DNA of 64,000 bases, from assembly GCA_036504735.1 (NCBI GenBank), contig DASXUQ010000009.1:1-64000 (forward strand). The letters are read 5' to 3'. The stretch comes from a bacterium (GTDB lineage: Bacteria; Electryoneota; RPQS01). Position numbers and translations under genes: made by a program. This document shows, in pieces, positions 65 to 1,512 of the stretch (position 1 is the stretch's first letter; every line of letters begins with the position of its first letter). The notes under the pieces are model-generated. The model worked only from the letters and a program-made list of their open reading frames with translations. It was not told where the DNA came from and did no database searches.

Positions 65-355
65 TTAACAGCAACTCGACGAATTCCCCGCGCAGTCACA
101 GGTCGGTTCGCTTCCGGTGAGCCAACCCACCAGAACTCCGGCAGCACAGCCGACACCGGAGCGAACCTGAATCGCACCGGGTTCGCAGTTCTTCGAACAG
201 GCGCCGCACTCCATGCAGGCGCCACGGTCTACCAGCGCCGCGCGCTTCTCCGCCATTGCAAACACCGCATGCGGACAGACCAGCACACACAGGCCGCAGC
301 CGTTGCACTTTGCCGCATCAAATTCGAGAGTAATCACGTCTTCGAGGTATCTCAT
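65..355 (-). CDS. hgcB: HgcB, 2x[4Fe-4S] ferredoxin partner of HgcA (mercury methylation)
   Basis: ORF 65..394(-). Likely ATG at 355 (MRYLEDVITLEFD...), which makes an ATGA overlap with the hgcA stop. Two ferredoxin Cys clusters including CMECGAC, plus a C-terminal vicinal Cys pair (SSSCC) typical of HgcB. Confidence 0.8.
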   Translation of the reverse strand: MRYLEDVITLEFDAAKCNGCGLCVLVCPHAVFAMAEKRAALVDRGACMECGACSKNCEPGAIQVRSGVGCAAGVLVGWLTGSEPTCDCAGNSSSCC

Positions 356-1512
356 AGCACCGGCCCTCCCGAAAGAAACAGGCCCGTAACCCACAATCCC
401 AGTCCAAGGGCCGCCGCGCCGATCTGCAGCGGCAAGGCAAACCGCATCTCGCGCAGCACGCCGGAAAGGGAGGTAAACGTGGACGTGCCCGTGAAATTCA
501 TCACGGTAAAACTGCTGATGGTGGGCATCACCAACGCCCAGCAGGCCGTATGCAGCAGAGGATGGGCAGTCAGCGTGGTCGCCATCCCGGAGAGCATCAG
601 CACGGCAAACAGCAGCAGCCCGAGGATGGCACCCTTAAGCGAAAAGGCGCGCCCCGGCAACAGAGGCAGCAACAGTGGTCCCAAAATCGCTCCTCCTAAG
701 AAGGCGGAGAGCACCAACGCCGCGCTCTGAATCCCGGTGGTGCGCACCCGTTCGAGAGCATAACCGTGAGCATTCAGGCCGCTGAAGAGCAGCAGCGCCG
801 CAGCGGTCAGCAGCACATACTTTGCGCCCATCACCACTTCCACCGGAATCAGCACCGCGCGGTCTTTCAGCGCAAACCGCACCGCGCGCATGGCCGGCTC
901 GGCTTTGAGGCCTGCATCCAGAAACGCGGGAAGATCCTTCGCCCGTACCGGACCGTACACCACGCGGAATCCGCACTGATGCCGCACCGTGTGCGCAGCC
1001 ACGCCCGGCGCGCCGAGTTGCGGCAAGATGAGTTTGCGGTGCGAGACGATCCGGTCCAGTCCCGCAACCTGCACCCGCCGCACCAGTTCTTCCGTGCCGA
1101 AGGTTCCCTTGCCTGCCGCGCACCAGACATTAATGCCCTTGGTATCCAGCACAAGAACCCAGGCATTCCGCCCGGTCAGCGCCTTGCGCAGATGATCGAA
1201 ACTCAGCTTGTAATTTGCCGTCACCACCACCGGAGACTCGGCAGTGGGATTGCCCACCGCATACAGTCCCGGCAAAATGCTGTAATGCATGCGGCCAATC
1301 GCGCTGCGCGCCTTCAAAGTGCCGAGCCTGTCGCTGCACCTCAATTCGGTTCGCGCGCGGGGCACATCGCCCACCGCCGTCGATAGCACACCGTCACTCC
1401 ACGGAGCGGAAATTTGGCCCAAAGTACGGGGCTCCACCTTAGCCTGATTGCATGCACAGGGAACTCCCGGTGTGCAGCCTTCCGCCGGCTCCTTTTTACG
1501 AATCGTTACCAT
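352..1512 (-). CDS. hgcA: HgcA, corrinoid protein of the mercury methylation pair
   Basis: 386 aa. Cap-helix motif GINVWCAAGKGTF, the HgcA signature N(V/I)WCA(A/G)GK. N-terminal CFeSP-like corrinoid domain and a C-terminal multi-TM hydrophobic domain. SD AGGAAGGA lies directly upstream of ATG 1512. Confidence 0.85.
   Translation of the reverse strand: MVTIRKKEPAEGCTPGVPCACNQAKVEPRTLGQISAPWSDGVLSTAVGDVPRARTELRCSDRLGTLKARSAIGRMHYSILPGLYAVGNPTAESPVVVTANYKLSFDHLRKALTGRNAWVLVLDTKGINVWCAAGKGTFGTEELVRRVQVAGLDRIVSHRKLILPQLGAPGVAAHTVRHQCGFRVVYGPVRAKDLPAFLDAGLKAEPAMRAVRFALKDRAVLIPVEVVMGAKYVLLTAAALLLFSGLNAHGYALERVRTTGIQSAALVLSAFLGGAILGPLLLPLLPGRAFSLKGAILGLLLFAVLMLSGMATTLTAHPLLHTACWALVMPTISSFTVMNFTGTSTFTSLSGVLREMRFALPLQIGAAALGLGLWVTGLFLSGGPVL

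Follow-up and report, generated by a model that had tools for sequence, protein, structure and literature searches.

To our knowledge, the gene pair hgcAB is the only known genetic marker of microbial methylmercury (MeHg) production. In strain ND132, S-adenosylmethionine (SAM) is the methyl donor to the cobalt of HgcA, HgcA Cys93 is a required ligand of the cobalamin cobalt, the transmembrane (TM) domain of HgcA is essential and the clusters of HgcB re-reduce the cobalt; also required are Cys73 of HgcB and its C-terminal Cys94/95, the probable shuttles of Hg(II) and CH3Hg+ (PMC7305189, PMC11588087). An ArsR regulates hgcAB in the same strain; arsenic induces the pair, and its deletion gives an As(V) phenotype (bioRxiv 10.1101/2022.10.17.512643). 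There is an extensive literature on uncultured anaerobes that carry hgcAB, among them members of FCB/Bacteroidota lineages, and on the ars neighbourhoods of the pair (PMC7438021, PMC10504345), and acr3, arsC, arsM and arsR flank hgcAB in many metagenome-assembled genomes (MAGs; PMC7438021, PMC10504345, PMC10349881). Here we analyse the first 64,000 nucleotides of contig DASXUQ010000009.1 (GenBank assembly GCA_036504735.1; hereafter the window), from an uncultured FCB-group bacterium. An original prediction, made from the letters of this stretch, had placed an hgcA–hgcB pair near its beginning. We find that the locus is very probably a genuine hgcAB mercury-methylation gene pair, from which a capacity for Hg methylation is predicted. 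It is a new member of a thoroughly known gene pair in a known ars context, an embedding that is already published and not new. To the original prediction our analysis adds the position of the pair at the tail of an ars-type operon, a Cys-rich HgcA N terminus and two Cys-rich membrane genes, cysTM and a dsbD-like gene.

Both hgcA and hgcB reading frames are intact and carry every motif that the original prediction had listed (Table 1). Proteins were scored against curated NCBIfam and Pfam hidden Markov models (HMMs), with the cut-offs of those models in bits. HgcA matches the NCBIfam equivalog NF040863 at 441.8 bits (cut-off 275; E 1.4e-132), positions 1–324 of the 325 in the profile aligning to residues 50–379, and HgcB matches NF040864 at 118.8 bits (cut-off 99; E 6.6e-35) over positions 1–93 of 93. 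The HMM search that had been proposed as a check thus places both proteins above their family cut-offs. In Pfam, the sole domain of HgcA is the generic PF03599 (CdhD), at 41.2 bits. Its closest homologues are metagenomic proteins of 386–387 aa that are 69–77% identical with full-length coverage, and its best named species-level relatives are an Acidobacteria MAG and an Eisenbacteria MAG, at 62% each. The HgcA family is well populated, with at least 8000 homologues at E < 1e-10, and the hgcAB gene pair is not rare. An identical HgcA is encoded on contig Ga0376481_000006 (968,175 bp) of JGI metagenome 3300035523. The JGI gene call of hgcA gives a protein of 321 aa that drops the Cys-rich N-terminal extension and is named 'acetyl-CoA decarbonylase/synthase complex subunit gamma', because Pfam detects only the generic CdhD domain. 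Recent horizontal acquisition of hgcA was considered and set aside: the G+C content at its third codon positions (0.73) is typical of window genes and gives no compositional sign of it.

Table 1. Coordinates of the hgcAB locus, its flanking elements and the second ars operon in the window.
Feature	Position	Strand	Description	Basis
Stem-loop after hgcB	1..20	minus	CAGAAGCGGCACCC-TTCAAA-GGGTGCCGCTTCTG; 14-bp stem; loop 1-6, left arm 7-20, right arm beyond the window (L081 11298-11331)	
hgcB	65..355	minus	96 aa from ATG at 355; 2x[4Fe-4S] ferredoxin	NF040864
ATGA overlap	352..355	minus	hgcA stop TGA over hgcB start ATG	read from sequence
hgcA	352..1512	minus	386 aa; corrinoid protein of mercury methylation	NF040863, PF03599, full-length homologues, Foldseek
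HgcA TM domain	355..861	minus	about aa 218-386; five helices	Kyte-Doolittle and AlphaFold
HgcA cap-helix segment	1099..1137	minus	GINVWCAAGKGTF; aa 126-138	N(V/I)WCA(A/G)GK pattern match at aa 128-135
HgcA N-terminal extension	1378..1512	minus	aa 1-45; Cys13, Cys19, Cys21 (EGCTPGVPCAC)	
dsbD-like gene	1525..2226	minus	233 aa, GTG start; CcdA/DsbD-fold membrane protein with four Cys; stop 12 nt upstream of hgcA	
cysTM	2229..2480	minus	83 aa; Cys-rich single-pass membrane protein	frame kept in relatives
acr3	2587..3687	minus	arsenite efflux permease, 366 aa by the JGI start	TIGR00832, 454.7 bits (cut-off 282.8)
arsR	3684..4070	minus	ArsR/SmtB repressor, 128 aa; ELCVCEL As(III)-type site, C-terminal GCC	NF033788, 91.4 bits (cut-off 55)
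Inverted repeat	4165..4195		AAAAATATAAAA-N7-TTTTATATTTTT; perfect 12-bp repeat in an AT-rich region upstream of arsR	repeat search
Second ars operon	32584-36090	minus	ArsR, ArsP, Thioredoxin_3, Thioredoxin, CcdA-type DsbD_TM, DUF6064	

The cap-helix motif on which the original prediction leaned is present in HgcA as NVWCAAGK and includes Cys131. In an alignment of HgcA with 18 homologues, N128, V129, W130, C131, A133, G134 and K135 are unchanged throughout, as are many residues of the TM domain. Cys131 is the counterpart of ND132 Cys93, the proposed lower axial cobalt ligand. The claimed C-terminal TM domain is borne out by hydropathy and by structure prediction. An AlphaFold model built on 19 homologues, with a mean predicted local distance difference test (pLDDT) score of 64 and used solely for helix counts and fold class, comprises an alpha/beta domain followed by five long helices (residues 222–243, 253–284, 290–307, 318–345 and 349–379). 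The N-terminal extension has a CxC and lacks a CC/CU dipeptide; most close relatives have a Cys-rich N-terminal stretch, and seven of these homologues carry the CC dipeptide (P0002, P0003, P0004, P0006, P0007, P0008 and P0013). Extensions of HgcA with PCUGP or CC were reported by Haft & Gwadz (bioRxiv 10.1101/2022.07.06.499078), and from its sequence the present extension appears to be a cysteine version of this CU/CC-bearing type. A selenocysteine-containing upstream extension of hgcA was ruled out, since the stop of the preceding gene leaves no space for an in-frame upstream UGA. The hgcA ATG at 1512 is preceded by a Shine–Dalgarno sequence, AAGGAAGGA.

HgcB contains two CX2CX2CX3C motifs, CNGCGLCVLVC at residues 17–27 and CMECGACSKNC at residues 47–57, a lone Cys70, Cys86 and Cys88, and Cys95-Cys96 as its final two residues; the CMECGAC and C-terminal CC named by the original prediction are both there. 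A longer ORF (open reading frame) from a GTG start also exists (65..394, 109 aa). We take the ATG at 355 as the start because the homologues in the closest-relative loci, L082, L083 and L085, in each of which the hgc cluster is headed by arsR, are 96 aa long and because the HMM match is full-length. A Shine–Dalgarno sequence, GGGAGGG, precedes hgcB. The ATGA overlap that the original prediction had reported is real: the minus-strand sequence across the junction is GTG CTA TGA / ATG AGA TAC, and the JGI gene calls overlap by the same 4 nt. This arrangement would couple the translation of hgcA and hgcB. Among 80 species-representative hgcA loci, taken from 587 relative-encoding stretches on one-genome-per-species contigs, hgcB lies directly after hgcA in 79. 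At a locus elsewhere (L101 5725-7417), a 380-aa HgcA follows arsR-cysTM-dsbD-like, with no hgcB among the called genes in the 550-nt downstream gap.

With these parts, the pair is expected to work much as it does in ND132. HgcA would be a membrane-anchored corrinoid protein whose cap-helix Cys131 ligates cobalt; its cobalamin would be methylated, with SAM as the probable donor by analogy with ND132, and the methyl group would be moved from cobalamin to Hg(II) to give CH3Hg+. HgcB, as a two-cluster ferredoxin, would then re-reduce the cobalt, and its Cys70 and Cys95-Cys96 would be expected to pass Hg(II) in and CH3Hg+ out. Corrinoid and Fe–S loading, SAM use and MeHg production would all be expected at this locus.

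The pair comes last in a probable six-gene order, arsR-acr3-cysTM-dsbD-like-hgcA-hgcB. The genes are tightly spaced: arsR and acr3 overlap by 4 nt, acr3 and cysTM are separated by 106 nt, cysTM and the dsbD-like gene by 2 nt and the dsbD-like gene and hgcA by 12 nt, and hgcA and hgcB overlap by 4 nt. The three closest-relative loci have the same gene order, again with arsR at the head. The six genes probably form one transcription unit and would be co-transcribed. Because the first gene of the unit encodes an ArsR of the canonical As(III) type, arsenite or a comparable thiophilic metal(loid) probably lifts the repression of the unit. We infer from this layout an ArsR-dependent, As(III)-inducible co-transcription of all six genes. 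The 12-bp inverted repeat upstream of arsR is a candidate ArsR operator or promoter region. The stem-loop that follows hgcB, which was spotted by eye, separates hgcB from a convergent gene and probably acts as a terminator; a consensus terminator scan missed it because it has no T tract. Two further observations concern the non-coding parts of the locus. An AT-rich imperfect palindrome lies in the acr3–cysTM gap, at about 2511–2545, and the window differs from the JGI contig at two positions in 11,317 bases compared, window positions 6 (in the loop of the hairpin) and 10 (in its left arm).

From its N-terminal CC...CxC, the cysTM protein runs through a basic stretch and a single TM helix; a variable linker then leads to a C...C...CCPS motif near the C terminus. 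Its Cys columns are invariant across 13 aligned members, it is called as a separate gene of 82–83 aa in L082 and L085, and a GGAG lies 8 nt before its ATG at 2480. No significant Pfam or NCBIfam match to cysTM was found at E <= 10. The protein occurs in two forms: a short one of 75–99 aa, as in the window, without an extracytoplasmic domain, and, in more distant members, a long one of about 220 aa whose TM helix and C-terminal Cys motif are separated by an additional extracytoplasmic domain (ORFs directly upstream of the dsbD-like gene in L092, L093, L094, L096, L097, L099 and L074). A Pfam scan of one long form (L099 4251-4988) returned nothing.

The dsbD-like protein scores 38.7 bits against PF02683 (cut-off 27.1), and the top Foldseek match of its moderate-confidence model is CcdA 5vkv (TM-score 0.56–0.58, probability 1.00). 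It carries SCCALP in TM1 and CSVGCNP in TM4, and the four intramembrane cysteines (SCC in TM1; CxxxC/CC-N-P in TM4) are near-invariant in 38 members of the subfamily. Two other identities were rejected. An ArsG organoarsenical permease is disfavoured by a score of 41.2 bits against NF040495 (cut-off 200), and a canonical CcdA by the presence of four Cys instead of one per half and of cysTM, not a thioredoxin, as partner; the protein is a variant of that fold. The JGI call at 1525-2514 (minus) gives a single 329-aa 'DsbD_TM' ORF that merges the cysTM region in another frame. We rejected this single-gene model as well: its homologues are 233 aa long, its first ~96 codons are without a homologue and the other frame is the conserved cysTM; the Pfam domain in the 329-aa ORF is limited to residues 116–327. 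Orthologues of 233 aa lie directly upstream of hgcA in L082, L083, L085 and other loci.

We then followed the cysTM/dsbD-like pair beyond the window. Strong matches to an HMM of the dsbD-like subfamily occur in 10 of the 80 unbiased hgcA loci, seven of them directly upstream of hgcA (one Eisenbacteria, six Bacteroidales), and the gene is directly upstream of hgcA in all four closest-relative loci considered. Retrieval with the four-Cys dsbD-like permease itself yielded 18 loci, of which eight contain hgcA; five of the ten negatives are too short downstream to judge. A metagenome scan with five close dsbD-like sequences gave 14 loci. The subfamily is small (139 matches at E <= 1e-5), and probably at least 17 of the top ~50 matches lie on the same contigs as HgcA homologues. 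The pair also occurs without hgcAB. L087 reads arsR-acr3-arsP-cysTM-dsbD-like, and in L100 a permease 81% identical is followed by arsP-Trx-CcdA; in L097 (5790-6584) and L103 (3105-4265) the pair stands beside ArsM-type SAM methyltransferases with no hgcAB in the locus. An ArsM-type SAM methyltransferase adjoins the pair in L102 (2773-3714) too, and L035 and L064 have both ArsM and hgcAB with the pair, ArsM lying upstream of cysTM. We read the pair as a module of ars islands whose link to metal(loid)-methylating enzymes is strong without being exclusive. In the literature searched, we found no paper naming cysTM and the dsbD-like protein with hgcA.

These features suggest a tentative role, which we put forward as a possibility well below even odds: the pair may be a dedicated transmembrane thiol relay that supplies Hg(II) to HgcA and HgcB, or relieves them of CH3Hg+, at their Cys-rich termini. 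The relay is favoured by cysTM Cys motifs conserved on both sides of the TM helix, by the four near-invariant intramembrane cysteines of the permease and by the counts given above of loci that hold both the permease gene and hgcA. The presence of the pair in the L087 and L100 ars operons and in the L097 and L103 ArsM loci, all without hgcAB, argues against an HgcAB-exclusive role. Because the same pair adjoins ArsM-type methyltransferases elsewhere, a relay would more generally serve metal(loid)-methylating enzymes, and it could carry Hg(II) and MeHg or arsenic species across the membrane. Participation of the cytoplasmic Cys cluster of cysTM in such a relay is speculation.

Three other explanations of the locus have to be set against a genuine Hg-methylating pair. 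The proteins might be non-methylating paralogues: a corrinoid protein of the CFeSP/AcsC type, from the Wood–Ljungdahl pathway, accompanied by a ferredoxin, or kin of the fused HgcAB-like proteins, which do not methylate Hg. The JGI name would fit such a paralogue, as would CdhD being the only Pfam domain, and solved CFeSP structures in the PDB do align to HgcA, with E 1e-9 to 3e-7, but over residues 78–198 to 84–202 only. The family scores point the other way: HgcA reaches 68 bits against the CdhE/AcsC gamma model (cut-off 306) and 200.8 bits against the fused HgcAB-like model NF043039 (cut-off 285), each below the cut-off of its own model, whereas HgcA and HgcB clear theirs, which upholds the identity given by the original prediction. 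HgcA also has the family-specific Cys in its cap helix and a five-helix membrane domain, both of which CFeSP lacks; hgcA and hgcB are separate, unfused ORFs, and acs/cdh genes were not found among the scanned window ORFs. When the HgcA model was compared with known folds in Foldseek, the best match was the ND132 HgcAB integrative model 9a0b_A (E 2e-22, 46% identity over 332 columns), and the CFeSP chains, which cover the corrinoid domain only, ranked after it. A PDB sequence search with HgcA returned CFeSP only and no HgcA entry, 9a0b surfacing by the fold search alone. We regard a paralogue as exceedingly improbable, its case being effectively refuted by the family scores. It is also improbable, if less extremely so, that the genes are intact but silent in situ, either unexpressed or in a host without corrinoid supply, so that their presence over-predicts methylation. 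Such silence has precedents: McDaniel et al. describe some hgcA+ groups with rpoB but without detectable hgcA transcripts (PMC7438021), and even ND132 contains extremely little HgcAB (PMC11588087). We saw no genes for corrinoid synthesis or uptake in the window; as its 64 kb belong to a contig that spans at least 968 kb, this absence says nothing about the cobalamin genes of the host. Both frames are intact with their catalytic residues conserved, good Shine–Dalgarno sites and tight operon packing favour expression, and the 69–77% identical orthologues in the same gene order imply purifying selection.

The remaining alternative accepts true HgcAB and shifts its selected role to the handling of arsenic or another metal(loid), for example methyl transfer to As(III), with Hg methylation as a side reaction. 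We judge this unlikely, though less so than the other two. The pair is distal in an operon that begins with arsR, of the canonical As(III) type, and acr3; a paralogous ArsR, 64% identical, leads a second ars operon about 30 kb away; and the cysTM/dsbD-like pair recurs in the plain ars operons and hgcAB-free ArsM loci described above. In ND132, moreover, hgcAB is induced by arsenic, and loss of the pair makes the strain more sensitive to As(V) (bioRxiv 10.1101/2022.10.17.512643). Sensitivity to As(III), however, is equal in ND132 wild type and delta-hgcAB (same source), and Hg is the sole HgcAB methylation substrate with biochemical support. Only 12–15 of the 80 species-representative hgcAB loci have ars genes within 6 kb, which makes the linkage lineage-specific, and a selected role in arsenic handling is in any case compatible with a capacity for Hg methylation.

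Several observations weigh against the reading of this locus as a Hg-methylating pair at the end of an ArsR-controlled operon. The only biochemically studied HgcA, that of ND132, is 46% identical to the protein here, and the HgcA extension has C13, C19 and C21 in place of the CC/CU dipeptide of most relatives. Both AlphaFold models used, those of HgcA and the dsbD-like protein, are of moderate confidence (pLDDT 63–64). A scan of the operon for sigma-70 promoters and terminators gave counts at or below the expectation from shuffled sequence, and the 106-nt gap between acr3 and cysTM may hold an internal promoter or terminator, so that ArsR control of hgcAB is a conditional reading. The transcript-free hgcA+ groups of McDaniel et al. 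count on the same side. Even with these points, a genuine hgcAB pair is the identification in which we have high confidence.

The rest of the window, which has a G+C content of 58%, bears on the host and on the surroundings of the pair; rRNA and tRNA searches of it found nothing. The remark in the original prediction that the lineage bears a type IX secretion system (T9SS) agrees with what we find, since several window proteins have a Por_Secre_tail sorting domain and a C25 peptidase is present; Por_Secre_tail genes also lie near hgcA in the closest relatives. The secreted proteins with T9SS signatures form a cluster (14680-17235, 39677-44695, 45531-48449 and 48551-50563; L081 14054-15277). 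Its members include an 851-aa protein with six CHRD domains and a Por_Secre_tail, a 1672-aa C25 (gingipain-type) peptidase with an FlgD_ig-like C terminus, a 972-aa protein with a T9SS-associated galactose-binding-like domain and a 670-aa CarboxypepD_reg protein with a Por_Secre_tail. Named matches to HgcA and the dsbD-like protein come from Krumholzibacteria, Eisenbacteria and Acidobacteria, whereas most of those to the RND pump described below are from Bacteroidota; the host is therefore assigned to the FCB group, on its T9SS genes, and to no single phylum.

The ArsR of the second ars operon also has an ELCVC site. Within that operon, a canonical CcdA with one Cys per half stands with thioredoxins at 33274-34367 and is 33% identical to the dsbD-like protein over 54 aa. 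The second set of ars genes is contiguous with cysTM-dsbD-like-hgcAB in L083 and about 30 kb apart from them here. A redox/sulfur cluster at 26454-31963 (minus) encodes a sulfur-transport/rhodanese fusion of 397 aa, a cytochrome b561 of 200 aa, a 544-aa multihaem cytochrome c with Cytochrome_cB and MtrC/MtrF-like domains, a DUF302 protein, a thioredoxin and a 227-aa ArsR-HTH/rhodanese fusion regulator. An RND efflux operon at 51429-57141 (plus) comprises OEP, a 365-aa middle ORF and a 1050-aa AcrB-type pump. Its metagenome homologues are 84–89% identical, and the named matches to the pump, at 72–74%, are five from Bacteroidota/Bacteroidetes and one from Acidobacteriota. The RND homologue P0124 and the hgcA homologue P0017 are probably on the same contig, and L085 carries a 1050-aa pump (150-3302) some 6 kb upstream of its hgc cluster; together these suggest a conserved RND–hgc synteny in the lineage.

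A new example of hgcAB is routine in itself, because at least 8000 HgcA homologues are known and the ars–hgc linkage is published. If correct, the call adds an uncultured, T9SS-bearing lineage of the FCB group to the predicted methylators, and it corrects a database mis-annotation in which a 321-aa 'acetyl-CoA synthase gamma' hid a Cys-rich N terminus. The value added lies in the corrected gene models, the Cys-type N-terminal extension, the operon reading and an undescribed pair of Cys-lined membrane proteins. Should the thiol relay be true, it would supply a missing uptake or export component of microbial mercury methylation. The pair is a testable candidate for two questions, how Hg(II) enters and MeHg exits, and why hgcAB is so frequently wired into arsenic operons, and it could make Hg uptake and MeHg export, together with the arsenic–mercury link, experimentally approachable.

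Comparison with known systems places each component of the locus. The large subunit of CFeSP (AcsC/CdhE; 2h9a, 2ycl, 4c1n and 4djd) shares with HgcA a Rossmann-type corrinoid domain with a cap helix, but only ~120 residues align, at 25–26% identity, and CFeSP lacks both the membrane domain and the cap-helix Cys ligand and works with a different partner. The dsbD-like protein shares with CcdA/DsbD-beta (5vkv) the six-helix CcdA fold in which TM1 and TM4 are broken at Cys motifs; it differs in having four Cys where CcdA has one per half, and in having a Cys-rich single-pass protein, not a thioredoxin, as partner. The Mer transporters MerT, MerC, MerF and MerE offer a further comparison, which also draws on the discussion in PMC7305189: they too are small, sit in the membrane with Cys pairs on either face and are encoded beside a mercury-transforming enzyme. 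The likeness of the cysTM/dsbD-like pair to them is functional only, since topology and helix count differ; Pfam and NCBIfam scans of the two proteins at E <= 10 gave no match to a Mer family, and the pair, unlike the Mer transporters, also occurs in ars operons without a mercury gene.

The closest described systems are those of ND132 (DND132_1056/1057) and Geobacter sulfurreducens (GSU1440/1441), in which hgcA and hgcB are likewise two adjacent genes. Their HgcA proteins have the same corrinoid domain, NVWCAAGK cap helix and five TM helices, and their HgcB proteins the same two [4Fe-4S] motifs, lone Cys and C-terminal CC. The N-terminal extension of ND132 HgcA and GSU1440 carries a PCUGP selenocysteine motif, whereas the one here is all-cysteine. 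An ArsR-family gene lies upstream of hgcAB in ND132, as here; the ND132 locus is without other ars genes, whereas the present ArsR, with its canonical ELCVC, also heads acr3. Unlike either system, the locus has two extra Cys-rich membrane genes between the regulator and hgcA, and its host is an uncultured FCB-group bacterium, not a member of the Desulfobacterota. The ars neighbourhoods described from MAGs (McDaniel et al. 2020, PMC7438021 Fig. 6; Peterson et al. 2023, PMC10504345, Prolixibacteraceae) resemble it in placing hgcAB a few ORFs from acr3, arsR, arsC or arsM; these papers name only those four genes, without the cysTM/dsbD-like pair. Loci of Bacteroidales/Prolixibacteraceae in our set (L035, L036, L064, L068, L072 and L076) share the same cysTM-dsbD-like-hgcA-hgcB core, and in the Bacteroidales acr3 comes after hgcB; in the window it is found ahead of cysTM.

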